DNA of 64,000 nt, taken from NCBI GenBank assembly GCA_963602685.1, contig CAVCJG010000001.1:122683-186682 (forward strand), written 5' to 3'. The position numbers and the translations under genes are program-made. Positions 6,191 to 58,391 of this stretch are shown one piece after another; position 1 is the first letter of the stretch, and each line of letters starts with the position of its first letter. The notes under the pieces are model-generated. The model made no database searches. It saw only the letters and a program-made list of their open reading frames with translations, and was not told the origin of the DNA. Source of the stretch: Eggerthellaceae bacterium. GTDB taxonomy: Bacteria; Bacillota; Clostridia; Christensenellales; UBA1242.

Positions 6191-6218
6191 AAAAAACACG
6201 CATTCGCGTGTTTTTTTT
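6191..6218 (+). terminator. rho-independent terminator after iscU
   Basis: Stem acacgc/gcgtgt with loop attc, followed by T8. Confidence 0.8.
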
Positions 6219-6237: not shown

Positions 6238-6338
6238 GCACACGCAGTGTGCCATCATGCACGCATCAGCGTGCCATCCTGCATGCGCAAGCATGCCATA
6301 ATGTCACCAAAGGTGACTATCATGCTGACGCAGTCAGC
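6238..6338. repeat. array A of 5 tandem short GC-rich hairpins with CATCAT-like linkers
   Basis: The units start at 6238, 6259, 6281, 6303 and 6324. Each has a perfect 6-bp stem and a 3-4 nt loop. The linkers are CATCAT, CATCCT, CATAAT, TATCAT and CAATTT. Confidence 0.85.
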
Positions 6339-6423
6339 CAATTTGTCCACATAGGAATGATATGAAAGCACCCAAAAAATCCTGCGTCAAGCCCAAATTG
6401 TGACGGAATGTATGCAAAAACGC

Positions 6424-6452
6424 TTGACGTTTTTTTTTTTTTTCACTAGAAT
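6424..6452 (+). promoter_or_regulatory. promoter of giant surface protein gene A with a T14 tract in the spacer
   Basis: TTGACG (6424-6429), a 17-nt spacer made of T14 (6430-6443) plus cac, then TAGAAT (6447-6452). The flanks are conserved with locus B. Confidence 0.6.
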
Positions 6453-6584: not shown

Positions 6585-9500
6585 ATGATAAAGACAAAGG
6601 CAAACGTAATTAAAATTCTTTTTATCGTTTTATTGTCGCTGTTGATGATGACAGGCGGCATAGTCTTTTTATGCAGTGAAGTCTCAACTCCGCCATCTCA
6701 AATGGAAGAACAAGTCGACGAAGTTAAAGCTGCAACCAACAACAACTATATTAGATGGACATCTTATGGTGCAAATGGACAAATTGGTTCTAATTTTGGT
6801 GGCTATGTATGGTCGGGATATGCAGGAGCTCAAAATTATAGAGGTGGTTTTGGAAAGACTGCTACTCAATCTACCGGCACTGATAGTAGTTCACTTACAA
6901 GAATTGCGGGGCAGTCGAATAGAGGTATCGTATTTAACACAGCGGTCACCAATTACAAAACAGGCCTCAGAGCTGGAGTATTAAGAATTTACTCCGATGG
7001 GAATCTATATGCTGCGGTTAGCTTGGATAGCTTAAGTGGAACAAGTGCTGAACGTGGAAGCATAAATTATAAAAACGATATATATTGGGATGTTTATTTA
7101 TATTATACCATCGCCTATACGGTAACTTGGAGTTATTGGCCTACAGAATATGGAAGTTTGCTTCATTACGATAAAAACTCACTAGTATATAGATATGATA
7201 CATCATCAGGTAGTGGCCAATGGTGGTGGACTGTTGATGGCGAGACTCAGCATGGAAGTCCATTGCTTCCATCGCGAACGGGTTATGCTTTTTCGGGACT
7301 GCAGACATCAAGTGGGCAAAAAATTATCAACTCTTCTATGGGCTGGGCAGGCTATTGGAATGCCAGCACAGCATATTGGGCACAATTATACGATAGTTGG
7401 ACACCATATACATATGAAGTCACTGCAAATGCAAATGGTGGTTCAATTCCTTCAACATCAGGTTGGAGTGGAACAGGTTCAACAGCAACAAAAACTGTTA
7501 CTTTTGATTCAACGTATGGCACACTTCCAACTCCAACCAGGACAGGTTATACATTTGGTGGCTGGTATACATCTTCAACTGGCGGGACAAAAATTGAGTC
7601 GAGCACAACGGTAAAAACAGCCAGTGATCATACAATTTATGCACATTGGACTGTAAATAATTATAACCTTAAAGTAGATCCAGCATCAGGTTCGTATAAC
7701 AATTCAACAGGTCTTACTTCAATTACACAAAATTACGGAACATCTTATACATACTTAACTCCAACAAAAACAGGATATAACTTTGACGGATGGCACACAG
7801 GCCAAAATTATTTGAGTTCGGCAAAAACATTTGACGGCTCATCTACATATGTTGCAGTCGGTCGTTCGCCTATGTATACAAGTGGCATTTCGGTTGCCGT
7901 CAGGGCAACTATGGACAGCTGGAGCGATTTTAAGACAAGTAATATGCGGCTAGTCTCCTGCACGGAAAGCGGTGGCTGGAACTTTGAGCCAAACGGCGAA
8001 TATGTCCAGTTTGCGTGTTATGACAGCGGTGTGGGATACAAATCCGCTAAAGCAAGCATAAAATGGTCCGATTTAGCGACGGGATATCACACTTTCACAG
8101 GAACTTTTGATGGTGAATATGCAAGAGTTTATATCGATGGTAAACTATATGGAACTTCAGCAAAATTCACATCTGGTAAAATTGGCTATCACGCGTCAAA
8201 CGGAATATTTATTGGTGCGGAAGCGGGCTCAAATGCGACAACTCCTGCGGGAAATTACTTTAAAGGAACTATTGACTATGTAGCAATTTCAAACAGTGGC
8301 ACAGTGTCAAAGCCAACATCGTTTACTTTCCCAGCTTACAACTCGGCATCAACAGCGCAATGGACAGCAAAAACATTTACTTTGACATTTGATGGCAATG
8401 GTGGCGGAACACCTAGCCCAACATCTAAAACTATCACATATGACAGCACTTATGGCACATTAGCGTCGGTTTCACGAACAGGTTACACCTTTAGTGGCTG
8501 GTGGACGGCTGCATCGGGTGGATCGCAGATAACGGAAAGCACAAAAGTGACCGTTACTGCCAACCAAACCGTCTATGCTCACTGGACAGTAAACAACTAT
8601 AATTTAACTCTTGCGCCAAACAGCGGATATTATGAATCGAGCAATGCTAATCGAACATATTCGGGGGCGTATGGTTCGACATCGTATTTTGGAGCGCCAC
8701 TCCGAACAGGTTATACGTTTGAAGGTTACACGCTTAGTGGGGCGGGCACACTTTCCGAACGCAAAGCGTCATCAGGATTTTCTTCAGCGACATTAAAAAG
8801 CGACGCCAACGGCGCGTATTACAATTATACTTTCTCAGGAACTCGACCAAGCAGTGACAGTTGGCCAAGCATACAGTATCCGGCGTATTCGTTTACCGCG
8901 GGGAAGACGTATGTGTTAAGCTTGAAAATAAGAGTCAATTCAACAACTGACGGCTTTTCAATTCGTCACGCGTCAATCTCAAACGACTGGGTTTGCCCAA
9001 TGCGCGGCTTTAGTAGTTCAACAAGCGGCTGGGTTGATGTAACGCTGGAACAAACGATCGGCGAAAATTACACGCGTTCAGGCACGTCTTATACATCGTC
9101 GCCACGACTTGAAATCTATATGAATTCAACCAAGGCAACAGGGTCGAACGGAACAACTTATAAAGTAGACTTTGATATTAGAAATATAGTTGTATATGAA
9201 AAAATATCAGGTCAAACCGCTTTTTCATCAATCTCTTACACTTACGGTGCAGACGCCGGAACAATAACAGCCAACTGGCAAGTTAAAAATTACAGCGTAA
9301 GCATCGATCCAAATGGCGGAACATACAGCGGAAGCACGGCAGCAAAAAGCGTAAGCGGAAACTACGGAACTACAACAACAATTTCAGATCCTACTAGAAC
9401 TGGCTACACCTTTGCTGGTTGGATTGCAACAAAAACAGATCTCAGCACAACATGGGCGCAAATTCTCTATCACGATACGGTTTATGGCACAAGTCTGTTT

Positions 9501-11882
9501 GCGTCCAGCGACGATTTAGCGTCAAAGGTTGTCAACACAACAACTAAAAACAGCCAATTTGCAACACTCGCAAAACTTAATTTGACAAGTTATGAGTTCT
9601 TGCTTCAATATCATCATACTTTGCAAACCGGAAGCTCAATGTATGCGAGAGAATACAACCGCTGGAAGCAAACATCAAATCCAGCAACGACTTCTGAATC
9701 CGTGAGCGGATATCAGGCGGTTTCAATTTCATGGAATACAAATACAAATTCATCGGCATTCCAAGGAATTGCTAAATCAAATTATTCTGGCACATTCATT
9801 GATGGAACAATCGGACATTCAAATTGGTTCTATGCGTTGGGCGCATCTGAAGCATGGAACGGGGGAATCCCAGGACCAAGCAGCGCCGAAACAAACATTG
9901 TAACCTTGTATCTTGCAACTGACAGCTCGCTGTCAAACTTTAAACCAACAGCAACATTCAAAGATGCGGATGCCTTAGGCTCGGACAACAAATATTACTT
10001 TAAAGACGAATCAGTAACTCTTAAAGCGCTTTGGATTGTAAACAGCTACACACTTACCGCAAAGGCAAATTCAGGATCAATCAAAGCAACGACAGGTTGG
10101 ACTGGCACTGGCACAACTGCAACAAAATCGGTGACATATAATACTGCATACGGAACTTTGCCAACAGTAGAAAGAACAGGATATGGATTTGCTGGTTGGT
10201 ATACAGCAGCAACAGGTGGAACAAAGGTTGATGCCAACACAAAAATAGGGGCAGCAAACGCAACTATTTACGCTCATTGGAGCATAAATTCATACACGCT
10301 TTATGCAAATTGCAATGGCGGATCAGCCCCAAGCACGCTTCCAACAGGATGGACAGCAAATGGAACGATGCCACAACGCTCAGTCAATTACAACGATACG
10401 TATGGAACACTTCCAGAGCCAACAAGACAAGGATATATCTTCGCCGGTTGGTGGACACAAGCAAGTGGCGGAAGTGAAGTGTATAATGGTACAAGAATGG
10501 GTGCGGCAGACGCTACAATCTATGCTCATTGGGTAGAAAGCTGGGTTAAATATATGTCAAGTGACAATCCTGTAATAGATCAAGCGGATGGTTATTACAA
10601 AATCGATTCAGCTGAAAGACTTGCACGTCTTGCATACCTTGTAAATTACAACATTGACAACGGCAAATGGGCAAGTTATAAATACAAACAAACCGCAGAT
10701 ATTGACCTTTCAGCACACTATTGGCAACCTATTGGATTGGAGACATATCCATTTTGTGGGACATTTGATGGCACCACATTTGATATTCACAACATGAAGA
10801 CATATTGCGAATCGGAATATTACTATTACTATAATACATATTTAGCTCAAGGTTTATTTGGAGTAGGAAGATCTATAAAAGTCTTGAATGTAAATATATA
10901 TGACGTTAATGTAAAAGGCAATGGAGCAGGTATTGTAGCTAAATGGGACAAAAATACAAGCGATAACAAAATTACAAATTGCCGAGTAACTGGTAAAATA
11001 AATGGTGATAACACAGGAGGTATCCTGGGAGATTCATATGGTGATGGAGTAATATCTAAATGCGAAAATTATGCAGACATTTATTCTGAAGACAGCACTT
11101 CTGGTGGAATCGTAGCTAGTAATTATTCACAAAATAGTTTTATAGTGTCGGAATGCGTAAATTATGGTGAAATCCATGCGTCAGGTGATGCAACAGGCGG
11201 TGGAATAATCGGAATTTGTGATGTCGGTACTGTAGAAAATTGTGTAAATTATGGTGACGTCGGAGATTATGGTGATACAGGTGGTATTGTAGGATTTGCA
11301 ATAAAAAATGTAACCATTAGAAATTGTATAAATAACGCAGATGTCATTGGCGCTTATGAGGTCGGTGGTATTCTTGGTGGAGCGAACAACAGTGTTTCTA
11401 TTAGCAATTGTATAAATATCGGAAGCTTAACAAATGAACAAGGATCGGTCGGCGGCATAGTTGGTGAAAACTATGGCGGCCAAGTTTCAATCGAGTCTTG
11501 TTTTGCTGATTGCCAAGTTGTGATCGGGGAAAAAGTTGGTGCGATTTTAGGTTCAACAGATACTTCTGATGTAACTATTACATATTGTGGCGCTAGAATA
11601 ACTATTCTTACGACAATAGCAAATGTGGGGGCATTCTACAATGCTGATAGTGGAGTGACTGTGACGTGCAATGATTCTTATTCACTTGTCAATAACAATG
11701 GAACAAAAATCAACCGCATCACTGCAACAAGCAGCGGAATGGATGGTAAGTTTGGAATGGTTTCATCAATTCATGATGGATTGCCAGTTCCACTTGGAAT
11801 CTACCATGTAAGCCAATATGGAACAACAAAAGGCATTGCTTCTACCTTAAAGGGAAGCAAATACGGCTGCACAACCGCTTAA
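6585..11882 (+). CDS. giant surface protein A (1765 aa): N-terminal membrane anchor, Listeria-Bacteroides (InlB B-type) repeats, LamG-like module, C-terminal GLUG repeats
   Basis: The N-terminal hydrophobic segment is ILFIVLLSLLMMTGGIVFLC. Repeats of the form TRTGYTFxGWYTxxxGGTKxxxxTxxxxxxxxIYAHW recur many times. The LamG-like region runs FDGSSTYVAV..YFKGTIDYVAISN. GG(I/L)(V/L/I)G motifs recur in the last ~300 aa. Confidence 0.9.
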   Translation: MIKTKANVIKILFIVLLSLLMMTGGIVFLCSEVSTPPSQMEEQVDEVKAATNNNYIRWTSYGANGQIGSNFGGYVWSGYAGAQNYRGGFGKTATQSTGTDSSSLTRIAGQSNRGIVFNTAVTNYKTGLRAGVLRIYSDGNLYAAVSLDSLSGTSAERGSINYKNDIYWDVYLYYTIAYTVTWSYWPTEYGSLLHYDKNSLVYRYDTSSGSGQWWWTVDGETQHGSPLLPSRTGYAFSGLQTSSGQKIINSSMGWAGYWNASTAYWAQLYDSWTPYTYEVTANANGGSIPSTSGWSGTGSTATKTVTFDSTYGTLPTPTRTGYTFGGWYTSSTGGTKIESSTTVKTASDHTIYAHWTVNNYNLKVDPASGSYNNSTGLTSITQNYGTSYTYLTPTKTGYNFDGWHTGQNYLSSAKTFDGSSTYVAVGRSPMYTSGISVAVRATMDSWSDFKTSNMRLVSCTESGGWNFEPNGEYVQFACYDSGVGYKSAKASIKWSDLATGYHTFTGTFDGEYARVYIDGKLYGTSAKFTSGKIGYHASNGIFIGAEAGSNATTPAGNYFKGTIDYVAISNSGTVSKPTSFTFPAYNSASTAQWTAKTFTLTFDGNGGGTPSPTSKTITYDSTYGTLASVSRTGYTFSGWWTAASGGSQITESTKVTVTANQTVYAHWTVNNYNLTLAPNSGYYESSNANRTYSGAYGSTSYFGAPLRTGYTFEGYTLSGAGTLSERKASSGFSSATLKSDANGAYYNYTFSGTRPSSDSWPSIQYPAYSFTAGKTYVLSLKIRVNSTTDGFSIRHASISNDWVCPMRGFSSSTSGWVDVTLEQTIGENYTRSGTSYTSSPRLEIYMNSTKATGSNGTTYKVDFDIRNIVVYEKISGQTAFSSISYTYGADAGTITANWQVKNYSVSIDPNGGTYSGSTAAKSVSGNYGTTTTISDPTRTGYTFAGWIATKTDLSTTWAQILYHDTVYGTSLFASSDDLASKVVNTTTKNSQFATLAKLNLTSYEFLLQYHHTLQTGSSMYAREYNRWKQTSNPATTSESVSGYQAVSISWNTNTNSSAFQGIAKSNYSGTFIDGTIGHSNWFYALGASEAWNGGIPGPSSAETNIVTLYLATDSSLSNFKPTATFKDADALGSDNKYYFKDESVTLKALWIVNSYTLTAKANSGSIKATTGWTGTGTTATKSVTYNTAYGTLPTVERTGYGFAGWYTAATGGTKVDANTKIGAANATIYAHWSINSYTLYANCNGGSAPSTLPTGWTANGTMPQRSVNYNDTYGTLPEPTRQGYIFAGWWTQASGGSEVYNGTRMGAADATIYAHWVESWVKYMSSDNPVIDQADGYYKIDSAERLARLAYLVNYNIDNGKWASYKYKQTADIDLSAHYWQPIGLETYPFCGTFDGTTFDIHNMKTYCESEYYYYYNTYLAQGLFGVGRSIKVLNVNIYDVNVKGNGAGIVAKWDKNTSDNKITNCRVTGKINGDNTGGILGDSYGDGVISKCENYADIYSEDSTSGGIVASNYSQNSFIVSECVNYGEIHASGDATGGGIIGICDVGTVENCVNYGDVGDYGDTGGIVGFAIKNVTIRNCINNADVIGAYEVGGILGGANNSVSISNCINIGSLTNEQGSVGGIVGENYGGQVSIESCFADCQVVIGEKVGAILGSTDTSDVTITYCGARITILTTIANVGAFYNADSGVTVTCNDSYSLVNNNGTKINRITATSSGMDGKFGMVSSIHDGLPVPLGIYHVSQYGTTKGIASTLKGSKYGCTTA
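7829..8300 (+). other. LamG / concanavalin-A-like lectin module inside protein A (absent from protein B)
   Basis: The pattern FDGSSTYVAVG..MRLVSCTESGGW..YHTFTGTFDGEYARVYIDGKLYG..IFIGAEAG..YFKGTIDYVAISN is typical of Laminin_G_3-type domains. Confidence 0.55.
8571..10808 (+). repeat. long paralogous segment shared with 42541..44780 (direct orientation)
   Basis: About 745 codons align colinearly with protein B, mostly identical residues by eye (HWTVNNY..SERKASSGF..QVKNYSVSIDPNGGTY..YKYKQTADIDLSAHYWQPIG..HNMKTYC). Confidence 0.9.
10850..11600 (+). repeat. GLUG-type repeat region of protein A
   Basis: Motifs such as GAGIVA, TGGILGD, SGGIVAS, GGGIIGI, TGGIVGF, VGGILGG and VGGIVGE recur roughly every 20-25 aa. 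Confidence 0.6.
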
Positions 11883-31353: not shown

Positions 31354-31382
31354 TTGTCTGCAAAAAAATTAGATGGTATAAT
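31354..31382 (+). promoter_or_regulatory. promoter with extended -10 placed 7 nt before the ATG (leaderless candidate)
   Basis: TTGTCT (31354-31359), a 17-nt spacer, TGgTATAAT (31374-31382), then aataaac and the ATG at 31390. Confidence 0.5.
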
Positions 31383-31389
31383 AATAAAC

Positions 31390-34300
31390 ATGAAAAAGAA
31401 ATTTTTTACAATATTTTGTGCCACTTTGGCTTTGCTTTTCGTTTCTCTTTTGCCATGCGGAGCAAAGATGTCTGCGTCTGCATTGACGGAAAACGAAAAT
31501 ACTTTTTACAGCGAGAAAAACGCGCCAATGTTTTATGGCACAACCGAAATTACAATAGACAAAGATGTCGTTTCAACTTTCGACCTTTTAGACGGACGAT
31601 TTAGAATACTTGCCAAAGACTTTGAAGATGGCGACCTTACACCAAACATTGTTTGCACCTTTAATGATGTCGATCCAACCACCGCGGGAGAATATCGCGT
31701 GGATTATGAAGTCAAGGATTCTCATCAAAACGTTTCAAAAATTTCAGTGCCTGTTCATGTTCTTGACAAAAGTGAAGGCGAGTGCAAAATCACGCGAAGA
31801 GTCTATGCGATTCCTTCGCTTAGCAATTTAAGTCTTGTTGGCACCGAAAGATGCAACAATGGGGACAGCCAAATTTTAGGCATTTATCTTCCAGTGGGAA
31901 GCAAGGCTCAAGTGAAAATTTTAAGCCAAGACAGCCCAAATTTAAAAGTTACATATTTTGCAAACACCAACGCTCAAAAGACGTCGTCGACAATAAAAGT
32001 TGCGACAACCAGCGAGCAATATATTCAAAACACAAAAGATACAACCGGCTATGACAGCGTTCCAATTTTGACTTCGCCAAGACTTAGCGAAGAAAAAATC
32101 GATCAAACATATGACATAGAATTGAGTTTTGATTCAACTGTAAAAGCGCTTGATTATTTTCACTATAAAGACAGTGAACAAGATTTTAAAGACAAGTGGA
32201 AAACAACCGAAAATACATATGGCGTCGTTGACGGCGAAGCAATTATGGCGGTCGTTCCGTTTGCGGACGTTGATAAATTAAGCGGATATGTTGCTCCAAG
32301 ATTTGACGCTCCATTCGAATCGCTTGACACTTTTTTTGAATATTATTTAGAAGTAGTAAATCGCATGGATGCGATGCTTGGGCTGTCGCTTAATCCACAA
32401 GATCCGATTGACCAAAATTACAGAACAAAATATTTGGCAGTGGCAGATGCGTCAGCGGGCAGCGCTGCATATTATAACGGAAGTTTAATTGCGGTTGGCT
32501 CAGCATCCATATCGCCACTCTTCCAATATGGCTGGGGCACCTTGCACGAAATTGGACACGGCTATCAAGGCTATTTGGGAAGGGGCGGAACTGACGAAAA
32601 AACCAGCATCTTCTTAAATGAAACCGGAAACAACATTTTGGCACACTACATCCAAATGGATCCAATTTATCACAAAAGCGATCGCTATATAGGCAACCTA
32701 GCAAATTGCGAAGCCAACATAAACAACACACGCAAGAATGCGGTTGCAAACGGCAAAACCATTTTCAATAACAACAGCGGCGTATACACCAACACGCAAG
32801 AAAAATTGTATTGCATTGTCAATCTTCTAGACAACTTTGAAGGCGAACAAACATACGGAAAATTGTTCCAATATTATCGCCGCATTGTCAAAGAAGTGGG
32901 CAAAGACCAATTTACTGTGCCTGAAATTTACGCAAAGTTTTTTGCAGAAGAATACAACGCAAACATTATTCCATATCTCACAGCATGGACGATGTCACTT
33001 TCTGACGATGTTAAAGGCGAAATATTAAACTCAAACGCAGTGGCTTATTCCATCACAAGCGACACTTTGTCAGATGAGAGTTTTGAAAAGGTTTTCGTTG
33101 GCGAAAACTTGAAGTTAAAGTATGGTTTAATAAGCGATGAAGTTCTTGCCAAATACAACATTAAAAGCGAAGTTAAATTAAACATACAAATTGATGATTT
33201 CAACCTTGTTAAAGGCAAAAATGTTGCATTAACTCAAAATGGAAATATAATCAAAGTTCAAAAAATCAGCGCCGACACTGTCATCTTTAACAACCTTGAC
33301 ACCGGCACATATGAAATTAAATTGCCAATAGTTTATGGCTATGACAGTTTGCTTTGCATGGCAACACTGCAAGAAGGCGATAATGACATTTCATACGCTT
33401 ATTCTAAAATGGTGTATGAAGACCTGTCAAAGCCACTTACAGTGATTAAAATCCTTGGCATACACGGCACGCTTGGCTATTCGCTGACTTTCAATGACGG
33501 CTATAAGTCGGGCAGCATCGTCTATGGCGCGGCGGACTTAGGAAACCAAGGCAAGCAGGAATGGATCGACAATCCGGACAACGTTTATGTTTCGGTTACA
33601 ATAAAAGATCCAAACGGCGAAGTCAGCCAATCAGTAGAAGTTAAAGGCGTTGAATATTTTTGGGGCAAAACACCCGAAAACGCTACGCCAAGTTTTGAAG
33701 TAGGATCAAAGATTTGCATCTTCACGCACAGACCGACACTCGTGGGCGTCTATCTAAAAGAAAACGACCAAAAGATTGATGCTTATTCAGTAAGTCAAAC
33801 CGAGCAAAACATCGAATATGAAATAACAGAAAACGGGCTTAAACTTTTAAACAAAGCCGATTTTGATGAAAAAGAAGTGTTGTTTAAAGCCGCCAACGAC
33901 GAGATTAAAAGAGTGCTAAACAATGCTCAAAACACTTTAACAGAATCGGAGCTTGCAAACAAAAGATTAAAAGTTGCCACTAAAAATAAAGTGCTTAGCA
34001 TGTATTCATATTTGCCTAGTGATGACCAAGAAACATATGCAAATTTCATATCGCAAATCACAGGCGGAGGCAAACCAACCATCACTGTTAAAACAAGCGA
34101 CACGGAAATCAAAGTGGGCGAGCAACTGGACTTGTATTCACTTATCGAAATCACTGACAACGAAGATTTTGTGATTCAATCAAATTCAACAAATGTAAAA
34201 ATAGAAAGCAACTTTGATGCAAACAAAACAGGTGAGTATGTGGTAAAGTTTACTGTGACCGACAGTGACGGAAATACATCTGCAAAAGAAATTATTGTAA

Positions 34301-34443
34301 AAGTTTTAGAAAATCAACCTGCATCGCATGACAAAACATTTAATGCGCTTGAATATGGTTACTTGCTTGTGATTCCAGCGGTTGGGATAATAATTTTGAT
34401 TATTGTCATTGTTTTGAAGCGAAAAACACGCAAAAAACATTAA
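31390..34443 (+). CDS. secreted, membrane-anchored peptidase M60-like (enhancin/mucinase-type) with Ig-like domains
   Basis: Signal peptide MKKKFFTIFCATLALLFVSLLPCGA. The zinc motif WGTLHEIGHGYQG has a downstream E. Ig-like segments (GEYRVDYEVKDSHQN.., GEYVVKFTVTDSDGN..) lie near both ends. The C-terminal TM is LLVIPAVGIIILIIVIVL followed by KRKTRKKH. Confidence 0.8.
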   Translation: MKKKFFTIFCATLALLFVSLLPCGAKMSASALTENENTFYSEKNAPMFYGTTEITIDKDVVSTFDLLDGRFRILAKDFEDGDLTPNIVCTFNDVDPTTAGEYRVDYEVKDSHQNVSKISVPVHVLDKSEGECKITRRVYAIPSLSNLSLVGTERCNNGDSQILGIYLPVGSKAQVKILSQDSPNLKVTYFANTNAQKTSSTIKVATTSEQYIQNTKDTTGYDSVPILTSPRLSEEKIDQTYDIELSFDSTVKALDYFHYKDSEQDFKDKWKTTENTYGVVDGEAIMAVVPFADVDKLSGYVAPRFDAPFESLDTFFEYYLEVVNRMDAMLGLSLNPQDPIDQNYRTKYLAVADASAGSAAYYNGSLIAVGSASISPLFQYGWGTLHEIGHGYQGYLGRGGTDEKTSIFLNETGNNILAHYIQMDPIYHKSDRYIGNLANCEANINNTRKNAVANGKTIFNNNSGVYTNTQEKLYCIVNLLDNFEGEQTYGKLFQYYRRIVKEVGKDQFTVPEIYAKFFAEEYNANIIPYLTAWTMSLSDDVKGEILNSNAVAYSITSDTLSDESFEKVFVGENLKLKYGLISDEVLAKYNIKSEVKLNIQIDDFNLVKGKNVALTQNGNIIKVQKISADTVIFNNLDTGTYEIKLPIVYGYDSLLCMATLQEGDNDISYAYSKMVYEDLSKPLTVIKILGIHGTLGYSLTFNDGYKSGSIVYGAADLGNQGKQEWIDNPDNVYVSVTIKDPNGEVSQSVEVKGVEYFWGKTPENATPSFEVGSKICIFTHRPTLVGVYLKENDQKIDAYSVSQTEQNIEYEITENGLKLLNKADFDEKEVLFKAANDEIKRVLNNAQNTLTESELANKRLKVATKNKVLSMYSYLPSDDQETYANFISQITGGGKPTITVKTSDTEIKVGEQLDLYSLIEITDNEDFVIQSNSTNVKIESNFDANKTGEYVVKFTVTDSDGNTSAKEIIVKVLENQPASHDKTFNALEYGYLLVIPAVGIIILIIVIVLKRKTRKKH

Positions 34444-38079: not shown

Positions 38080-38820
38080 TCACATTTGTTTTGAATTTGA
38101 AACTTTTTTTGGGGTAGTTTTTGTCGGTTTAGGTTTTTCTTCGCTTTTCTCAGGCGCATTTTTAGAAGTTTCATACATCTGCACTAAAAATGATTCAAAC
38201 AGCGGCAAAGCCAGTGTCGCAAGCACAATCACAGCAGGCAGAGCAATCAGCATAACGCTCAGCCAGGTTGGGACTTTCATGAAAAGCGTGAAAATAAAGT
38301 AAATTCCAACGCCAATCGACGCACCCGAACAAACAAGCGCAATCATGCCAAGCACTGTGATCAATATTGTGAAACGATAGCCATAAGTCAGTTTTTTCGA
38401 TTTTTCAAAAATCTCTTTTGTGGTCAGTTCTGGGTTGTCAAAATATACAAGAGCAGCAAACGAGTTGTTTAGCCCATAAATGACACCGGGAACAATCAAA
38501 AGCAGCCCCCAAACAATCATTCCGCACAAAGCAATGATTTTGATGATTAAAATTTTTAGAATGCTTTTAAAAGGCAAAAACAAACTTTCGAAGTCCGGCT
38601 TTTGACCCCTAAATGAGCGTAACACAAAGCCATAAACGCCCACTTGCATATAAGCCATCGCGATAAAAGCGAGAGCGAAACTCAAAAGGGGAGCAAACAG
38701 CCCCAATGCGACAACCACAATCGCAAGCATATTTGCAAGAATAAAATTAAACCAATTAGCCTTTGCAGTAGGCATAAGGTTGGATGTGTTAAATGTTGTG
38801 ATTTTATCTTCTATTTTCAT
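38080..38820 (-). CDS. DUF975-like integral membrane protein
   Basis: The pattern WGLLLIVPGVIYGLNNSFAALVYFDNPELTTKEIFEKSKKLTYGYRF matches the DUF975 core. The C-terminal tail is Lys/Pro-rich. Confidence 0.6.
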   Translation of the reverse strand: MKIEDKITTFNTSNLMPTAKANWFNFILANMLAIVVVALGLFAPLLSFALAFIAMAYMQVGVYGFVLRSFRGQKPDFESLFLPFKSILKILIIKIIALCGMIVWGLLLIVPGVIYGLNNSFAALVYFDNPELTTKEIFEKSKKLTYGYRFTILITVLGMIALVCSGASIGVGIYFIFTLFMKVPTWLSVMLIALPAVIVLATLALPLFESFLVQMYETSKNAPEKSEEKPKPTKTTPKKVSNSKQM

Positions 38821-38998
38821 AATTTTTCTCCTTAAAATTAAAGTGTGAAAAAATTATGTATTTATTCTAAAAAATTAACACAAATCTCTCGCGTGCCTCC
38901 ATGCGCATATTTGAAATAATAAAATTGAAATACCACCGCAACGCACTCATATAAAAAACCAACCTTTATGCACACGCATATATAAAATCAACCGCAAA

Positions 38999-39124
38999 GC
39001 ACACGCAGTGTGCTATCATGCACGCGCTAGCGTGCCATCATACTGGCGAAGCCAGCCATCATGCGCAACTAGTTGCGCCATCATGTCACTGCAAGTGACC
39101 CTGTCAGTCGGACTGCCGACTGAC
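38999..39124. repeat. array B of 6 tandem short GC-rich hairpins with CATCAT linkers
   Basis: The units start at 38999, 39020, 39042, 39063, 39085 and 39103. The stems are 5-9 bp. The linkers are TATCAT, then CATCAT three times, then CCT. The last unit has a 9-bp stem followed by TTTT. Confidence 0.85.
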
Positions 39125-39204
39125 TTTTCCACATTGTCCAAATAAAAAAACAAAAAATTATTTCACGCATCGCCAAAATTGTGACGGATTGTATGCAAAA
39201 TTGC

Positions 39205-39233
39205 TTGACGTTTTTTTTTTTTACAGGTAAAAT
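39205..39233 (+). promoter_or_regulatory. promoter of giant surface protein gene B with a T12 tract in the spacer
   Basis: TTGACG (39205-39210), a 17-nt spacer made of T12 (39211-39222) plus acagg, then TAAAAT (39228-39233). Confidence 0.6.
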
Positions 39234-39404
39234 TATTATAGATATTGTCCACAGAAACAAAAAATTCAAGAAAAAAACATCGAATTTATCAATAATTATT
39301 TTTTTGTCGAAAAACGTTAGGTAGTTTTAATAAAATCGGTTAAAATAAATTATGGAATAAATATATAATTAAATATTATTGTTAATATTTTCAAGGAGGA
39401 AGGT

Positions 39405-42400
39405 TTGATTAAACGTAAGCTCAGTTACAGCAAATTAATGTATCTGTTGGTAGCGCTTAGCCTTTCTTTTTTTATTTTCGGAATCGTCTTTCTTTCTTGC
39501 TTTAATGTAAATGACAACTCGCAAGACTCGTCCGAAGCGGCAATCACGTATTGGACAGATTATGCTGCTGATTCTTTTGCAGGCGGAAACGGAACAGAGT
39601 CTAGCCCTTATCTCATTGAAACGGCAGCGCAGCTTGCACGCTTAGCGAAATTAATAAACAATAAAGACACAACTGCAGCTTGGAATTCAAAATATTATAA
39701 ACAAACTGCGAATATTGATTTAAGTACTGGCGGACATATATGGTATCCGATAGGGAATAGTTCATTTGATGAAGAAGCCGAAAATAATCACACTGTCTTA
39801 AAAAATGCTACGGTTCCTTTTAAGGGTACATATGATGGTGATGGGCATATTGTTAAAGGAATTAAAAATTCTTTACTAAGTTCAACAGGCGGCTTGTTTG
39901 GATCGGGAAGAGGCTGTACAATCAAAAACGTTGGAGTGTTAAACCCAGAAAGAATATATGGCATTTATGGTGCGGGGAGCATTTTAGGGGCTGCACTTTC
40001 GTTTAACGATAGCGGCACGACACTTAATGATGCTTGTAATGTCCTAAATTGTTTCAGTGCTGGTGGGACATATATTGGCGGAGCAAAGTACGGCGCAGGC
40101 GGAATTATAGGCTATGCGTATATTGGTGGTATAGAAAATTGTTATAATGCTAGTTCGGGTTTAGTTTCTTCATCAGCTACTGGTGGATTAATCGGATATG
40201 GAGTTTTTGGGGTGGCTTCATATTCTTATAATATTGGTGGTATGTCAACGAGCTCAAATTATCCTCAAGGCGGGATATTTGGTGCTAATGGTTTATCATC
40301 GGCAACCAGCGTTTTTAGTGTTGGAAAAAGAAACACTTCAAAGTATGCTGGTGTAAGTGGGAATTGTTTAGAGTCAGGAGTAACACCTTCATGTTCTAAA
40401 GTTTTCCATACAGCCATCGTCGATTATAATCAATGGAATATGTCTGCAGATCCGCCTGCTATTACTTCAGGTGGCACTCTGTCTGGAGTTTCGCGTCCAT
40501 CAAACTTGGAAACACAGGCAAAAGACTGGAGTTGGTTTAGCACAAATATAGATGCAGGGAATAATAACTATAAATTAAACAGCACAATTATTGAAAATGA
40601 CGGATATCCTGTTCTTTCTGTATTTTGCAAAAATGTAACAGCAAATGCAAATGGCGGCTCAGTGGTAAGTGGCAATGGTTGGCCAGCAGGTTCTACATCG
40701 ACGAAGACAATGGTCAATGGCTATCTTAATATGCCAACAGCAACAAGAACCGGATACACTTTTGATGGTTGGTATACGGCAGCAAGTGGTGGAACTAAAG
40801 TTGAACCTACTTGGGCAGACATGAAAGAAAGCATACCTTCAACAATTTACGCCCATTGGTCAAGAAATAGCTATTCAATAAGCACTGACCTTCGTGGTGG
40901 AACTACATACAAAAATATTATAACACCTTCAACAATTTGCGACAGCTGGACGGCTTCGACAAGTTATTCCAACTATATGACACTTCAATATGACGCTCCA
41001 AGTGGCGTTTATACAATGACAAACACAGCAGCAGGCAATGACCCATATGCAACAGGAAATCAAACCGTTTATTTGTCAACTGGCAAAACTTATGTTATGC
41101 ACGCGATTTGCACTGATAATTCAGGAGTTTCTGTAACTGGCAATCCTTTGCAAGTCTTTTATGGAATAAGTCTGGGCTACAGCGAAGCAAACAGCAAGCG
41201 GTTTGGTGAAACGACGACGCAAGAATTTACGGTTTCCACGTCTGGAACTTACAATTTCCGGTTTGACAACGACTTTTCTTATGCAAGCGGTGGAGTGATG
41301 AAAGTGCGAGAGTTCTGGGTTGCAGAAAAATCGCAATCAACGGCGACTCAATCTTATTCCGTTCCATATCAAGGATATTATCCTGCGGCGAATCCGACTA
41401 AAGAAGGTTACACATTTGCAGGCTGGAAAGAACTTTTAAACACAACAACGAATGTTACATTAAGTACAAGCACTTCAAATTACAATTATTTGCCAATGTT
41501 GACGGGTGTTGTTCCGGGTACGAAATATGAAATAACAATCGGAACGGCAAAACTAACATCTGGCTCTGCAAGCCAATTTACAACATTAATTTATGACTTT
41601 ACGACAAGCAAAACTTTAGCAAGTGCGACAAATAATTTTGGATCAAATGTTTCTTATACACTTACTTGTCCAAGTTCGGCAACCGCGTCAAACGATATTC
41701 GAATAATTATTTATGCAGGCATTAGTGGCGCGACGGCAAATAATGCGGCATCATATTCAAACATTCAAATCTTCTCTAGTAATGTTTTAGGTTCATATTC
41801 TGCTTTACATAACACAAGCACAGCAAGCAAAACTTATTATGCGCAATGGCTTCCTGTTGCGAGCAAAGTTACATTTAACCCAAATGGGGGGACAATAACT
41901 TCTGGCAATGCAACAGATTATGTGACATATGGCGCGACATATGCGGGCAAGACAAACATCTATCGCCCTATATTTGGTTCGCTTGCGCTTACAAATTCAG
42001 GAAATATATTCAGTGTCAATGTCGACAATTCGTCTGGAACAAGTGTCAAGTATGCAAATTTCATGTCTTCGTATGACGGCGCAACGGTGCAACCAAACAC
42101 AACTTACACGGTTGTAATTAAGGTGACCGCTTATAGTGGGAATCAATTAAAGATTAATTTTACTTCACCTTATGATATCGGCTCAAGTGGGTTAGGCGAT
42201 ACGGCAACGTCAACTTGTTGGTTTGATATTTCGAACACGGGCGTTTACTACAAGACATTTACAACAAAAGCAAACCTTAATGGTTCATATTTTAATTTTA
42301 GATCCTACATTCCTGTTGATGCTGGCAAAAAGGCGATTGCAACCTTCCAAGTTGCGGTTTTCGCCGGCTCGTTCAACTCAAATCCTACAAATTCAACCTT

Positions 42401-45400
42401 TGAGTATCATGAAGCAGCAAGCGGGAATGCTCTTCCTGTCGCTACAAGAACGGGTTATACATTTGACGGCTGGTTTACAGCTGAAACAGGCGGAACAAAA
42501 GTTTCAGCCGACACGATAGTTACAAACGCAAGTGATCATGTGTTGTATGCTCATTGGACGGTGAACAACTATGATTTGATTCTGTCACCTAATGACGGAT
42601 ATTATGAATCAAGCAGCTCAGACAGAACTTATACTGCTGCTTATGGCACGACTTCATACTTTGGAATGCCACTTCGAACGGGTTATACGTTTGAAGGCTA
42701 CACGCATACTGGTTCGGGCACGCTTTCCGAACGAAAAGCATCATCGGGCTTTACTTCTGCCACATTAAAGAGCGATTCAAACGGCGCCTATTACAATTAT
42801 ACTTTCTCAGGAACGCGACCAAGCAGTGACAGCTGGCCAAGCATCCAATATCCAACCTATTCGTTTACAGCAGGGAAGACGTATGTATTAAACTTTAAAA
42901 TTAGAGTAAATTCAACAACTGATAGTTTCGCGGTTCGTCACTCGTCAATCGCAAACGACTGGGTATGCCCAATGCGCGGCTTTAGTGGCGCGACAAATGG
43001 TTGGGTTGATGTAACTCTGGAGCAAACTATCGGCGAAAACTACACGCGTTCAGGCTCGTCTTATACATCATCTCCACGACTTGAAATCTACATGAATTCA
43101 ACCAAGGCAACAGGGTCAAACGGCGACTCATACAAGGTTGATTTTGATATTAAAAACATTGTTATATATGAAAAAGGAACAGGGAAAACCGCATTTACGT
43201 CTATTGTTTACACTTATGGTGCTGGAGCAGGAACGCTGACAGCGAAATGGCAAGTTAAAAATTATAGCGTGAGCATCGATCCAAATGGTGGAACATATGG
43301 CGGAAGCACGACTGCAACAAGCGTAAGCGGAAACTATGGAACTACAACAACAATTTCAGATCCAACAAGAACTGGCTATACCTTTGCTGGTTGGATTGCA
43401 ACAAAAACCGATCTCAGTACGACATGGGCGCAAATTCTCTATCATGATGCCGTTTATGGCTCAAGTCTGTTTACGTCAGGCGATAACTTGGCGTCAAATG
43501 TTGTCAATACAACGACTAAAAACAGTCAATTTGCAACACTTGCAAAACTTAATTTGACAAGTTATGAGTTCTTACTTCAATATCATCACACATTGCAAGC
43601 GGGAAGTTCAATGTATGCGCGAGAATACAACCGCTGGAAGCAAACATCAAATCCAGCAACGACAACAGAAGCAGTAAGTGGATATGAAGTGGTTTCGATT
43701 TCGTGGAATACAAATACGAATTCGACCGCATTCCAAGGGATTGCGAGATCAAACAGTGGGGCCACCTTTATTGACGGAACAATCGGGCACTCAGACTGGT
43801 TCTATGCTCTCGGATCATATAATGAATGGAACGGGGGAATTCCAGGACCAAGCAGCGCCGAAACAAACATTGTAACTTTGTATCTTGCAACAGACAGCTC
43901 GCTTTCAAACTTTAAACCAACGGCAACATTCAAAGATGCTGACGCTTTAGGCTCAAACAATACATATTACTTTAAAGACGAATCAGTAACTCTTAAAGCA
44001 CTTTGGATTGCCAACATTTACAAACTTACAGCAAACGCCAATGGCGGATCAATTCCGGAAACCACAGGCTGGAGCGGAACAGGCGCAACAGCAACAAAGT
44101 CAGTCGTTTATGACACTGCATACGGCACACTTCCAGTGCCAACAAGAACAGGCTATGGCTTTGCTGGTTGGTATAGATCGGCATCAGGCGGAATGGGAGT
44201 CAGCGCAACCACAAAAATGGGAGCGGCAAACGTAACAATTTACGCTAATTGGGAATTAAATTCATACACTCTTACGGCTGACTGCAATGGCGGAACAGCG
44301 CCAAGCACGCTTCCAACAGGTTGGACGGCAAATGGAACTGCACCATATATAACACTTAATTATGATGCTGATTATGGAATTCTTCCAGTGCCAACAAGAC
44401 AAGGATATATATTTGCTGGCTGGTGGACGGCAGCTAGCGCAGGCAGTGAAGTAAACTACAAGACAAAAATTGGAGCGGGCGATACAAAAATCTACGCGCA
44501 TTGGGTTGAAAGCTGGGTTAAATATATGTCAGACGACAACCCAGTATTGGATCAAGCGGACGGCTATTACAAAATCGACTCAGCTGCAAAACTTGCACGT
44601 CTTGCATATCTTGTAAATAGTAACGCGGACAACGGCAAATGGGCAAGTTATAAATACAAGCAAACCGCCGACATCGACCTTTCAGCACACTACTGGCAGC
44701 CAATCGGTAACGCAACATATCAATTTAAAGGGATTTTCGACGGCACAACGTTCGACTTCCACAACATGAAAACATATTGCGGAGTAAACGGATATGCTTC
44801 ATATGATTATTATGGGCTATTTGGTTATACAAAATCAGCTGAAATTCGAAATGTAAACAACTATGATATTGACATGAAATGCAGAGAATACTCGGGCGGT
44901 ATAGTGGGTAAATCCAGAGCAGGCACTATTGAAAATTGTAAAGTGACTGGGAAAATATCGGGCATATCTAATTTTACAGCGGGCATTACTGGCGAAAGTT
45001 CTTCAACAATTAAAGATTGCGTGAACTATGCTTCGGTCACTTCAGACTACTATGCTGTTGCAGGAATCGTCGGTGATGGTAGTGGGACAATTGAAAATTG
45101 CATCAATTATGGAAATATTACAGCATACGAATTTGCGGGCGGAATTGTTGGAAGAGCGTTTGGAGGAAATATTGAAAATTGTGTAAATGAAGGCAATATT
45201 ACTTGTACTTATCATATGGTTGGTGGTATCGCAGGCGAAATTTCATATGGGAACATTGTTTCGTGTAGCAATTTAGGCATTGTAACAGGTTTAGTTTACG
45301 TTGGCGGAATAGTAGGACAAAGTTCTTCTTCAGATGATATAACAATTTCTCAATGTTTAAACACCGGGGATATTGTTATTACGGATACAGACAGGACTAC

Positions 45401-45839
45401 ATATGCTGGTGGAATATTGGGAAATGCTTACACGGCTACAACGATAGAATCGTGTTTTGCTGATTTCAAAATTACTTCAAATAAAACAATTACGTTTGGA
45501 TCAATTTTGGGCTATGCTGAATACAACGTTACGATAAAATATTGTGGCGCTAGGATTACTACAACATCGAATCTGCCTGCGACAACAGTTTATGGGAATA
45601 AGAAAACATCGGCAACAGTTACGGCAAACGATTGGTATTCATTGTTAACTATTAGAGGAAATAAAATAAATCGTATTGCCACGACAAGCAGCGGAATGGA
45701 TGGTAAGTTTGGAATGATCTCATCAATTCATGATGGATTGCCAGTTCCACTTGGAATCTACCATGTAAGCCAATATGGAACAACCACAGGCATTGCTTCA
45801 ACCTTAACGGGAAGTAAATACGGCTGCACAACCGCGTAA
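39405..45839 (+). CDS. giant surface protein B (2144 aa): N-terminal anchor, GLUG module at both ends, B-type repeats, beta-rich unknown modules
   Basis: TTG start 4 nt after AAGGAGGAAGG. The N-terminus MIKRKL..LVALSLSFFIFGIVFLSC is homologous to protein A. The architecture is mosaic, with a central ~745 aa and the last ~60 aa nearly identical to A. Confidence 0.9.
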   Translation: MIKRKLSYSKLMYLLVALSLSFFIFGIVFLSCFNVNDNSQDSSEAAITYWTDYAADSFAGGNGTESSPYLIETAAQLARLAKLINNKDTTAAWNSKYYKQTANIDLSTGGHIWYPIGNSSFDEEAENNHTVLKNATVPFKGTYDGDGHIVKGIKNSLLSSTGGLFGSGRGCTIKNVGVLNPERIYGIYGAGSILGAALSFNDSGTTLNDACNVLNCFSAGGTYIGGAKYGAGGIIGYAYIGGIENCYNASSGLVSSSATGGLIGYGVFGVASYSYNIGGMSTSSNYPQGGIFGANGLSSATSVFSVGKRNTSKYAGVSGNCLESGVTPSCSKVFHTAIVDYNQWNMSADPPAITSGGTLSGVSRPSNLETQAKDWSWFSTNIDAGNNNYKLNSTIIENDGYPVLSVFCKNVTANANGGSVVSGNGWPAGSTSTKTMVNGYLNMPTATRTGYTFDGWYTAASGGTKVEPTWADMKESIPSTIYAHWSRNSYSISTDLRGGTTYKNIITPSTICDSWTASTSYSNYMTLQYDAPSGVYTMTNTAAGNDPYATGNQTVYLSTGKTYVMHAICTDNSGVSVTGNPLQVFYGISLGYSEANSKRFGETTTQEFTVSTSGTYNFRFDNDFSYASGGVMKVREFWVAEKSQSTATQSYSVPYQGYYPAANPTKEGYTFAGWKELLNTTTNVTLSTSTSNYNYLPMLTGVVPGTKYEITIGTAKLTSGSASQFTTLIYDFTTSKTLASATNNFGSNVSYTLTCPSSATASNDIRIIIYAGISGATANNAASYSNIQIFSSNVLGSYSALHNTSTASKTYYAQWLPVASKVTFNPNGGTITSGNATDYVTYGATYAGKTNIYRPIFGSLALTNSGNIFSVNVDNSSGTSVKYANFMSSYDGATVQPNTTYTVVIKVTAYSGNQLKINFTSPYDIGSSGLGDTATSTCWFDISNTGVYYKTFTTKANLNGSYFNFRSYIPVDAGKKAIATFQVAVFAGSFNSNPTNSTFEYHEAASGNALPVATRTGYTFDGWFTAETGGTKVSADTIVTNASDHVLYAHWTVNNYDLILSPNDGYYESSSSDRTYTAAYGTTSYFGMPLRTGYTFEGYTHTGSGTLSERKASSGFTSATLKSDSNGAYYNYTFSGTRPSSDSWPSIQYPTYSFTAGKTYVLNFKIRVNSTTDSFAVRHSSIANDWVCPMRGFSGATNGWVDVTLEQTIGENYTRSGSSYTSSPRLEIYMNSTKATGSNGDSYKVDFDIKNIVIYEKGTGKTAFTSIVYTYGAGAGTLTAKWQVKNYSVSIDPNGGTYGGSTTATSVSGNYGTTTTISDPTRTGYTFAGWIATKTDLSTTWAQILYHDAVYGSSLFTSGDNLASNVVNTTTKNSQFATLAKLNLTSYEFLLQYHHTLQAGSSMYAREYNRWKQTSNPATTTEAVSGYEVVSISWNTNTNSTAFQGIARSNSGATFIDGTIGHSDWFYALGSYNEWNGGIPGPSSAETNIVTLYLATDSSLSNFKPTATFKDADALGSNNTYYFKDESVTLKALWIANIYKLTANANGGSIPETTGWSGTGATATKSVVYDTAYGTLPVPTRTGYGFAGWYRSASGGMGVSATTKMGAANVTIYANWELNSYTLTADCNGGTAPSTLPTGWTANGTAPYITLNYDADYGILPVPTRQGYIFAGWWTAASAGSEVNYKTKIGAGDTKIYAHWVESWVKYMSDDNPVLDQADGYYKIDSAAKLARLAYLVNSNADNGKWASYKYKQTADIDLSAHYWQPIGNATYQFKGIFDGTTFDFHNMKTYCGVNGYASYDYYGLFGYTKSAEIRNVNNYDIDMKCREYSGGIVGKSRAGTIENCKVTGKISGISNFTAGITGESSSTIKDCVNYASVTSDYYAVAGIVGDGSGTIENCINYGNITAYEFAGGIVGRAFGGNIENCVNEGNITCTYHMVGGIAGEISYGNIVSCSNLGIVTGLVYVGGIVGQSSSSDDITISQCLNTGDIVITDTDRTTYAGGILGNAYTATTIESCFADFKITSNKTITFGSILGYAEYNVTIKYCGARITTTSNLPATTVYGNKKTSATVTANDWYSLLTIRGNKINRIATTSSGMDGKFGMISSIHDGLPVPLGIYHVSQYGTTTGIASTLTGSKYGCTTA
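39890..40300 (+). repeat. N-terminal GLUG-type repeat region of protein B
   Basis: TGGLFGS, GAGSILGA, GAGGIIGY, TGGLIGY and QGGIFGA motifs follow a YLIETAAQLARLAKLIN..YYKQTANIDL..FKGTYDGDGHIV lead-in. That lead-in parallels the C-terminal module. Confidence 0.6.
42541..44780 (+). repeat. long paralogous segment shared with 8571..10808
   Basis: See the feature at 8571. The two segments are colinear, in direct orientation and about 34 kb apart. Confidence 0.9.
44815..45560 (+). repeat. C-terminal GLUG-type repeat region of protein B
   Basis: SGGIVGK, VAGIVGD, AGGIVGR, VGGIAGE, VGGIVGQ and AGGILGN motifs. The sequence diverges from the equivalent region of A. Confidence 0.6.
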
Positions 45840-56532: not shown

Positions 56533-56608
56533 GGATCGCTAGCTCAGTTGGTAGAGCAATTGACTCTTAATCAATAGGTCCAGGGTTCGAGCCCCTGGCG
56601 ATCCACCA
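56533..56608 (+). tRNA. tRNA-Lys (anticodon CUU)
   Basis: GGATCGC TA GCTC AGTTGGTA GAGC A ATTGA CTCTTAA TCAAT AGGTC CAGGG TTCGAGC CCCTG GCGATCC A CCA folds as a cloverleaf. Confidence 0.9.
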
Positions 56609-56636
56609 AAACCACAATTTGTTGTGGTTTTTTTGT
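56609..56636 (+). terminator. terminator after tRNA-Lys
   Basis: Stem aaccacaa/ttgtggtt with loop tttg, then a T-run. Confidence 0.7.
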
Positions 56637-56701
56637 TTTTTAAATACTATTATTTTTGATTAAAGTCAAAATTTTTTTTTAATCTTGGGTCAAAAATTGG
56701 G

Positions 56702-57664: not shown

Positions 57665-57857
57665 TTCATTATCTCCTTTTGTTGGAGTTTTTGAAATGAC
57701 CTTATTTTTGACATTTGTATTATCTATGACCAGGAAAGGCTTTTGATATTCTTTCTTTCCTTTTTCATAAATTTCAATCAGTTCAAAGACAAGATTTTGT
57801 TCTTTATTTAATTGTTTGAGTTTGTCAATTTGTTTTTATATATTCTTCAATCATATT

Positions 57858-58367: not shown

Positions 58368-58391
58368 TTTTATATATAAGGAGTGTGAATC

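Follow-up and report, generated by a model that had tools for sequence, protein, structure and literature searches.

Tandem arrays of covarying DNA mini-hairpins upstream of giant surface-protein genes in an uncultured gut bacterium

Introduction

Covariation between the two arms of a stem is usually read as the signature of a functional RNA. In the window analysed here (one stretch of DNA of 64 kb), covarying stems are found in two tandem arrays of short hairpins, at a site that does not look transcribed and with loops that follow the rules of DNA hairpins. The locus thus raises the question of whether such an array would act as DNA, as RNA or as a protein-binding site, or whether its pairing is a by-product of replication. 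The original prediction, made on the second of the two arrays, had described six units with compensatory changes in their stems. Here, we follow this array and its paralogue through orthologous loci from gut metagenomes and compare them with known repeat systems.

The answer has consequences in either direction. If the arrays are functional, they would show that bacteria keep DNA hairpins capable of extrusion under selection as cis-acting elements of phase-variable surface-protein loci, and they would provide naturally occurring orthogonal mini-hairpins as test material. If they are a by-product, they are a clean natural case of template switching mimicking compensatory evolution and a caution for covariation-based RNA discovery. 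Either way, the array flags a surface-protein locus that varies strongly within a widespread, uncultured bacterium of the human gut, and it is a ready-made marker for strain typing.

Materials and methods

About 25 nifU-linked loci were obtained from gut metagenomes by exact look-ups of the NifU, NifS and thioredoxin of the window, and 20 further loci by look-ups of two other NifU variants from the same 90% cluster, giving about 45 in total; loci carry L numbers. Look-ups from the side of array B (a 246-aa protein, GDPD and the M60 peptidase) returned contigs of one sample, or contigs broken inside the giant gene. The allele survey consists of the nifU-side loci, and orthologues of array B are not among them. 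Covariation was measured on 31 distinct units of 15-16 nt, and the 15-nt and 16-nt classes were analysed apart because MAFFT, given mixed units, put gaps in the 3' arm.

Results and discussion

Two hairpin arrays within paralogous promoter cassettes

Arrays A and B each lie within a paralogous 5' cassette of about 350 nt, which precedes one of two paralogous giant surface-protein genes of the Flg_new/GLUG type. The two encoded proteins share 68% identity across their C-terminal 1200 aa, and their Flg_new repeats are of the Listeria-Bacteroides type. The features are as follows.

6191..6216, both strands: nifU intrinsic terminator, bidirectional, 21 nt upstream of array A
6238..6338, plus strand: array A, five hairpin units with linkers CATCAT, CATCCT, CATAAT and TATCAT
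6346..6352, plus strand: TCCACAT box A, 3' of array A and 78 nt upstream of the -35 hexamer
6424..6452, plus strand: promoter of gene A, TTGACG, 17-nt spacer with T14, TAGAAT
6585..11882, plus strand: giant surface-protein gene A, 1765 aa, Flg_new repeats
38932..38998, plus strand: degenerate leader copies, three tandem (A/C)CAACCGCAAYG plus the 5' half of unit 1 (GCACACGCA)
38999..39124, plus strand: array B, five 15-16-nt units and a terminal 22-nt hairpin, with linkers TATCAT, CATCAT and CCT
39128..39134, plus strand: TCCACAT box B, directly 3' of array B
39205..39233, plus strand: promoter of gene B, TTGACG, 17-nt spacer with T12 (39211-39222), TAAAAT
39405..45839, plus strand: giant surface-protein gene B, 2144 aa, Flg_new repeats and GLUG

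Read directly from the sequence, array B consists of six hairpin units joined by YATCAT linkers, all present exactly as originally listed: gcacac-gca-gtgtgc (unit 1), gcacgc-gcta-gcgtgc (unit 2), (a)ctggc-gaa-gccag(c), whose basal pair is an A·C mismatch (unit 3), gcgcaa-ctag-ttgcgc (unit 4), gtcact-gca-agtgac (unit 5) and gtcagtcgg-actg-ccgactgac, a 9-bp stem followed by TTTT (unit 6). The short units have stems of 5-7 bp and loops of 3-4 nt, and the stems of units 1 and 2 recur in array A, as had been stated. The half-copies noted upstream are also real: the leader and the 5' half of unit 1 are duplicated, each degenerate copy breaks off at the unit-1 loop, and the same leader duplication is present in alleles L049 and L053.

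Such rows of hairpins are rare. Ten of the 18 GC-rich hairpins of the window (stem of at least 6 bp, loop of 3-4 nt) belong to the two arrays, and outside the arrays no run of at least three adjacent perfect hairpins occurs in 1.39 Mb of other DNA examined, except in two viral contigs, where the runs are identical tandem repeats. The plus strand of array B folds as six separate hairpins at -39.8 kcal/mol (DNA folding z = -6.7; none of 200 shuffles was as stable), and the minus strand gives a DNA folding z of -5.0. Arrays A and B are not chance.

Both arrays lie about 80 nt upstream of a TTGACG-polyT-TA[AG]AAT promoter. The distance from the TCCACA box to the -35 hexamer is 77-78 nt in every array allele, and it is fixed although the intervening flank comes in three unrelated versions. 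Array, positioned box and 78-nt flank together make up an upstream module of the promoter cassette that is optional and specific to the lineage; the array is its distal part. The promoter T tract, located in the -35/-10 spacer and variable in length even within one array allele, is a classic switch for phase variation by slipped-strand mispairing, and it is likely that this separate poly-T tract, rather than the array, is the switch. Several assemblies break exactly at the promoter T tract. A homologue of the giant protein with 34% identity, in MAG GCA_948562115.1 (L045, 9870-9910), carries a poly-G tract (tcggggggggg) between TTGACA and TAAAAT; homopolymers in the promoter seem to serve the giant-gene family beyond a single species, there without hairpin arrays. 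Downstream of the promoters, TGTCGAA occurs twice in the leader of gene A (6529-6535 and 6552-6558) and once in that of gene B (39305-39311), within a conserved leader block, ttttgtcgaaaaacRttaggta; we take these copies to match the '0A box' consensus of Spo0A.

Array A is preceded by the nifU terminator, and the gene to the left of array B (38080-38820, minus strand, no domain found) is divergent, as had been reported; the arrays therefore sit between transcription units. The suggestion that protection from read-through cannot be the whole explanation holds, as a strong bidirectional terminator already stands before array A, array B has no co-directional gene upstream and the units lack U-tracts. 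A stack of terminators was rejected as a class, the hairpins being without U-tracts and the terminator scan calling no unit. The last unit of array B had been described as terminator-like: four T do follow it, but it received no call in the terminator scan and the feature is not conserved in other alleles.

The arms of the stems covary across alleles

Across all alleles, 37 distinct units were found. Each unit fits the pattern G[C/T]NNNN-loop-NNNN[A/G]C and is joined to the next by a YATCAT linker; the period is 21 nt in 19 cases and 22 nt in 17, which is about two helical turns. Among 39 full linkers (CATCAT 25, TATCAT 11, CATCCT 2, CATAAT 1), A2, T3 and T6 are invariant in all 39.

The original prediction rested on one pair of units, array A unit 4 (gtcacc/ggtgac) and array B unit 5 (gtcact/agtgac), which do differ by a two-sided change at aligned positions. 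This pair proves to be one case of a general pattern, with strong covariation across many alleles. In the 15-nt class 92.7% of stem cells are paired, with 27 two-sided changes, and in the 16-nt class 94.4%, with 20; none of 500 shuffles matched either class in pairing and two-sided changes. When the partner was moved by 1-3 columns, pairing fell to 10-52%, and arms shuffled between units paired in 48% of cells, compared with 91% for the arms as they stand in their own units. Stem positions 3-5 each show three or four Watson-Crick pair types, and position 6 shows three. Given 93-94% pairing, 47 two-sided changes and no equal among 500 shuffles, stem covariation is confirmed, and the check on a wider alignment of orthologous loci that had been proposed for this purpose has come out in its favour.

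Nevertheless, a two-sided change alone is not proof of selection on a folded transcript. Template switching during replication of quasipalindromes gives two-sided changes in one step (PMC8794818, PMC7202029), and arm covariation by itself cannot tell selection from template switching. Constraint is argued instead by three other properties: the invariant linker positions, the one-strand loop rule described below and the orthogonality of the stems, as perfect pairing between arms of different units inside an array occurs in 0 of 194 cases. About 40% of the distinct units carry one or two mismatches, which counts against a row of extruded hairpins acting in cis. Many of these are visible hybrids of two other units (for example gttggcgca/agcgac), and neighbouring units differ slightly less from each other than distant units do (2.5 versus 3.1 differences per 5-nt arm).

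The constant linker, the direct orientation of the units and the period of two helical turns would also suit a platform on which a hairpin- or single-strand-specific protein binds each hairpin with its YATCAT. Candidates would be an HUH/RAYT-like nuclease, a primase, a regulator, or sigma region 2 on linkers that resemble a -10 element (xATxxT); the linkers keep the A and T that are most important in a -10 element, and some read TGnTATCAT. Mini-hairpins are also known to mark entry sites of primase and of the N4 RNA polymerase (PMC13037366). We consider such a platform distinctly improbable: HUH, RAYT, Nop or other candidate domains were found in none of the 37 window ORFs scanned, there is no -35 hexamer in register with the linkers, and a dimeric binder of B-DNA has no need for complementarity of the inner stem. 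The last point is also why an operator or iteron array in B-form was rejected as a class.

Loops and mismatches point to plus-strand DNA hairpins

The loops are asymmetric between the strands. Loops of the type G..A are found on the plus strand in 21 of 31 distinct units and on the minus strand in none; T..C loops never occur on the plus strand. Eight distinct G..A loops were seen, all with varying middles (GCA, GAA, GTA, GCAA, GCTA, GTCA, GCCA and GTTA), and the closing pair is mostly C:G. The motif GCG(N1-2)AGC is present in 13 of the 37 units on the plus strand and in one on the minus strand, and c(GN1-2A)g in 18 and four, respectively. Exceptions to the G..A rule are units with ATC loops or symmetric CNNG loops, and the bias could in part be descent from one ancestral unit with a GCA loop.

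In an evolving RNA helix, G·U is expected to be enriched among mismatches. The stem mismatches here are G·T in five cases, A·C in six and other in eight, so that the wobble-type test for a strand gave no bias (G·T 5 versus A·C 6). The loops likewise differ from the common RNA type, one of the eight GNNA loops being GNRA. The DNA motifs GCGAAGC, GCGCAAGC and GCGTTAGC are found verbatim within units. For these DNA mini-hairpins, the melting temperature is 76.5 C for d(GCGAAGC), 72 C for d(GCGCAAGC) and 69.5 C for d(GCGTTAGC), compared with 39 C for the RNA r(GCGAAAGC) (PMC13037366). Taken together, the loop asymmetry, the GCG(N1-2)AGC motif and the balance of mismatches point to putative hairpins of plus-strand DNA, not to an RNA or a protein operator. 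Against a plus-strand reading, DNA folding with ViennaRNA gives an identical minimum free energy on both strands.

An RNA element would be a multi-hairpin transcript of one strand. Its hairpins might form a stack that insulates or terminates, stabilise a transcript at the 3' or 5' end, act as a small RNA or serve as a sponge for a protein. Both strands do fold into rows of hairpins as RNA (for array B, z = -4.6 on the plus and -2.6 on the minus strand), several alleles have a conserved minus-strand TGaAATAAT box on their right-hand side, the terminator of nifU works in both directions and TTTT follows the last unit of array B. However, alleles A and L053 lack the TGaAATAAT box, conservation of the U-tract is not seen, and array A lies between a strong terminator and a promoter. 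The loops are of the DNA types GNA and GNYA, not GNRA or UNCG, and the G·U pairs of an RNA helix are not enriched. No family of Rfam 15 covers the arrays at its gathering or E-value thresholds, the best E-values being at least 1.4 and unrelated. We regard this as the least likely of the explanations considered here.

The array is gained, lost and reshaped between strains

The spacer between nifU and the giant gene is hypervariable between strains: downstream of an identical NifU, alleles carry 0, 3, 5, 6, 7 or 9 units. Ten array alleles with 3-9 units were found, among them three with 3 units, two with 6 and alleles with 5, 7 and 9, and one contig holds a partial array. The array changes through gain, loss and recombination of units among strains, which bears out the earlier suggestion that it grows and decays by units, a suggestion with which the slightly greater likeness of neighbours agrees. 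Array-less alleles have the junction aaccgc-tt-gtaacgg and lack both the TCCACAT box and the A-rich stretch of 60 nt after it. In one deletion allele (L050/L066, about 3405-3470 and 4583-4650), the T-run of the nifU terminator is fused to that of the promoter; this deletion removes array, box and -35 hexamer, and a different N-terminal gene segment lies downstream.

The array is also missing from all 20 loci of two sister NifU lineages. These have an interrupted T tract, T7-9 A T4-5; interrupted tracts are the rule at all 24 array-less loci, and the loci with the NifU of the window have arrays together with pure tracts of T9-T15, which give promoter spacers of 12-18 nt. The association of array and pure poly-T may be a single evolutionary event. 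Within the L053 group (nine contigs with one array allele), T-run lengths of 9, 12, 14 and 14 occur, so the tract changes faster than the array. The array is dispensable and its copy number of 3-9 looks unconstrained, which speaks against an extruded row of hairpins that acts in cis.

Searches farther afield found no homologous array. Genome contigs scanned with the conserved protein region yielded distant Flg_new proteins only, with an array in none of 41 loci; a metagenome scan with the promoter-cassette pattern found one locus, array-less; and blastn of the cassette against plasmids and phages gave no match. A viral scan with a generic pattern of three linkers returned 48 loci, which were coding repeats or identical iterons, none of them homologous. 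An IMG/VR contig of an unrelated virus (L089) has, at 1080-1160 and 1230-1320, a non-coding region with about ten GGCGGCTA repeats and three or four identical 22-nt units GCCAGCGCCTGGCGG-CCATCATG, a hairpin plus the CCATCATG letters. This region looks like an iteron-type origin, and its resemblance to the arrays is probably coincidental.

Variation of this kind would fit a neutral by-product, namely a minisatellite that arose once and has been kept palindromic, without a function, by template switching in quasipalindromes. Template switching creates and maintains perfect hairpins (PMC8794818, PMC7202029), sister lineages do without the array, copy number is variable and many units are imperfect or hybrid. 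Nevertheless, this leaves several observations unexplained: the invariance of A2, T3 and T6 in 39 linkers amid diverging stems, the constant G..A ends of loops whose middles vary, with no T..C at all, the absence of perfect cross-pairing within arrays, and the retention of an array beside a positioned box in both paralogous cassettes. On balance, we judge a neutral origin improbable.

The array could instead be a fragile or recombination site, at which hairpins on the lagging-strand template would stall replication forks and so promote poly-T slippage as well as recombination or gene conversion among the surface-protein paralogues, by a logic similar to that of the G-quadruplex upstream of Neisseria pilE. 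To judge from GC skew and the orientation of genes, the lagging-strand template is probably the plus strand. Such a site would fit the hybrid units, the two deletion alleles and the leader duplications with their breaks at the unit-1 loop, as well as the very different N-terminal halves of the giant genes at loci with identical NifU, and the presence in the window of two paralogues flanking 27 kb where relatives have one gene between nifU and GDPD/lepA. Arrays also co-occur with pure, length-variable poly-T (T9, T12, T14 and T14 within one allele). However, variation of surface genes is expected from diversifying selection without any cis element, and the array-less lineages also have diverse genes, called at 1030 to 1561 aa. 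We hold a role as a fragile site to be unlikely.

Relation to known repeat systems

The arrays consist of head-to-tail units, within the range of about 10-100 bp of minisatellites, and are polymorphic in copy number at one locus. The array is thus a VNTR by definition and, by its building block, a set of DNA mini-hairpins. Our literature search found no description of a tandem direct array with a conserved linker, diverging palindromes and covarying arms, and the systems that come nearest differ in instructive ways.

REP units are copies of one conserved imperfect palindrome of 20-40 nt, which alternate in orientation within BIMEs and occur at hundreds of dispersed sites. Like the REP/BIME clusters of enterobacteria and pseudomonads (for a general review, see PMC3184786), the arrays are clusters of short, GC-rich, extragenic hairpin units that vary in number between strains and lie after terminators or between genes. 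Unlike them, the linker is conserved while the palindromes diverge, and the units are direct, 13-16 nt long and seen in one promoter cassette family. REP/BIME was rejected on 37 distinct units without a shared palindrome, linkers that are all YATCAT and G..A loops that are all on one strand. As for dispersal, the DNA sampled has two paralogous array sites in 64 kb and none in the other loci examined of the species, and no Y1/HUH domain, as in a RAYT transposase, was seen among the ORFs scanned.

CRISPR arrays have conserved repeats of 23-50 nt and unique spacers, usually with cas genes. Here, conservation covers 6 nt, what varies is a palindrome of 13-16 nt and no cas domains were seen, and CRISPR was rejected. 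Arrays of attC sites are made of imperfect palindromes of 57-141 nt with R and L boxes, located between gene cassettes and accompanied by an IntI integrase; they too were rejected, the units being 13-16 nt long without cassettes between them and the sole integrase-family gene lying 17 kb off, by a tRNA-Lys.

TIGR stem-loop arrays have stems that are 'variable but consistently palindromic' and short conserved motifs; their units of about 36-54 nt contain two spacers of 8-12 nt with box C and box D inside the stem, next to a Nop-domain Tas gene (PMC12045711; bioRxiv 10.64898/2026.09.09.750476). The arrays share tandem units with variable palindromic stems, and their linker, C[C/T]A-TCA-TG, spells letters like those of box C and box D. 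A TIGR array was nonetheless rejected, as loops of 3-4 nt and linkers of 6 nt leave no room for spacers, and a Nop domain is present in 0 of 37 ORFs scanned. The neighbours of the arrays are NifS/NifU, the Flg_new proteins and two proteins without a domain match. In L067 and L068, gene callers set an ORF of 76-77 aa over the array; a coding ORF was rejected because unit lengths of 20, 21 and 22 nt would not keep one reading frame and because some alleles have no array.

Contingency loci offer a different comparison, the repeats being GAA at vlhA of Mycoplasma gallisepticum, TAAA at nadA of Neisseria and a T-tract at sabA of Helicobacter. As there, a tandem repeat with strain-polymorphic copy number lies upstream of the promoter of a variable surface protein. 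In those tracts, however, the units are identical and 1-7 nt long and repeat number sets spacing or phasing, whereas here they are non-identical internal palindromes of 21-22 nt. The G4 of Neisseria pilE is a G-quadruplex with its own small-RNA promoter and a proven role in recombination. The arrays may be analogous to it as a strand-specific non-B DNA structure directly upstream of the expression locus of a variable surface protein, but they would form a row of hairpins, with a putative role.

The closest relatives in terms of structure are DNA mini-hairpins and the promoter hairpins of phage N4. To our knowledge, extrusion of 5-6-bp stems in vivo is known for N4 only. The N4 hairpins (5-7 bp) extrude from duplex DNA at a superhelical density (sigma) of -0.035 and in vivo, and their extrusion requires a C:G closing pair and a loop with 5' G and 3' A (PMC4496689). 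Many units of the arrays have just these properties, with stems of 5-7 bp, loops of 3-4 nt with 5' G and 3' A, and C:G closing (PMC4496689, PMC13037366). As in these motifs, the sequence of the stem is free to vary provided that it pairs. The differences are that N4 has single hairpins with conserved stem bases, a phage RNA polymerase and a defined start site, whereas here there are 3-9 tandem chromosomal units and no such polymerase was found.

A possible cis-acting DNA structure

The best explanation in our view, and one that we hold tentatively, is that a hairpin array extruded by supercoiling or replication acts in cis on a phase-variable promoter cassette. It takes as its basis the observed anatomy, hypervariability, covariation, plus-strand loop asymmetry, fixed box distance and co-occurrence with pure poly-T; in vivo extrusion and any effect on transcription are what we infer beyond these. 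A lineage-specific minisatellite would work at the level of DNA structure rather than as an RNA or a B-form operator, with plus-strand loops that obey the rules of extra-stable DNA mini-hairpins, c(GNA)g and c(GNNA)g. The trigger could be negative supercoiling behind RNA polymerase on a very long gene whose product would be exported co-translationally; alternatively, the plus strand may become transiently single-stranded as lagging-strand template. The units would then extrude as a row of independent hairpins, and since the stems within one array differ, each hairpin would fold only on itself. Next to the TCCACAT box and the promoter with its poly-T spacer, the extruded row might act as a structural or topological buffer or as an insulator. 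The number of units would drift by slippage and by recombination between linkers, and arm complementarity would be restored via selection, template switching or both.

A dedicated device is conceivable as well: a non-B-DNA element under selection, in which orthogonal, extrudable mini-hairpins would tune or insulate a contingency promoter or trigger hypervariation of the surface gene. Such a device we regard as doubtful. If true, it would match the pilE G4 at the level of DNA structure, and the N4-type rule for extrudable hairpins would have its first chromosomal example.

Genes around the arrays

Relatives such as L123 have the order nifS-nifU-giant gene-GDPD-lepA with a single giant gene. In the window, about 27 kb of housekeeping genes (11883-39404; SRP RNA, IleRS, PepF and others) lie between two paralogues. 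Two separated paralogues here versus one in relatives imply a rearrangement through the paralogous genes. The bacterium is an uncultured Firmicute; cluster members go by the name 'Clostridiales bacterium', and the SRP RNA of the window is of the large type.

To the left of array B, the segment 34598-38820 holds a tRNA-Arg followed by a gene for a T4SS coupling protein (TraG/VirD4-like) and small ORFs without domain matches. It was found in one other sample only (SRR13434679) and is probably what is left of an integrative conjugative element, here bordering the array on its left. At the end of the window (56533-64000), a minus-strand gene for a tyrosine integrase comes after a tRNA-Lys, and beyond it are plus-strand ORFs with weak or no domain matches, in DNA of 31-37% GC with strong GC skew; this region is probably an integrated island or prophage.

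A protein of 1029 aa encoded at 31354-34443 carries Peptidase_M60 (enhancin-like), mucin-binding and Ig-like surface domains, which fits a mucus-associated lifestyle in the gut. Finally, the orthologue of gene B in another sample (L043, 380-400 and 234-640) has an in-frame TAA inside an Flg_new repeat (acgggcTAAactcttgctggttgg), where two ORFs are called; this split gene may be a pseudogene or an assembly error.
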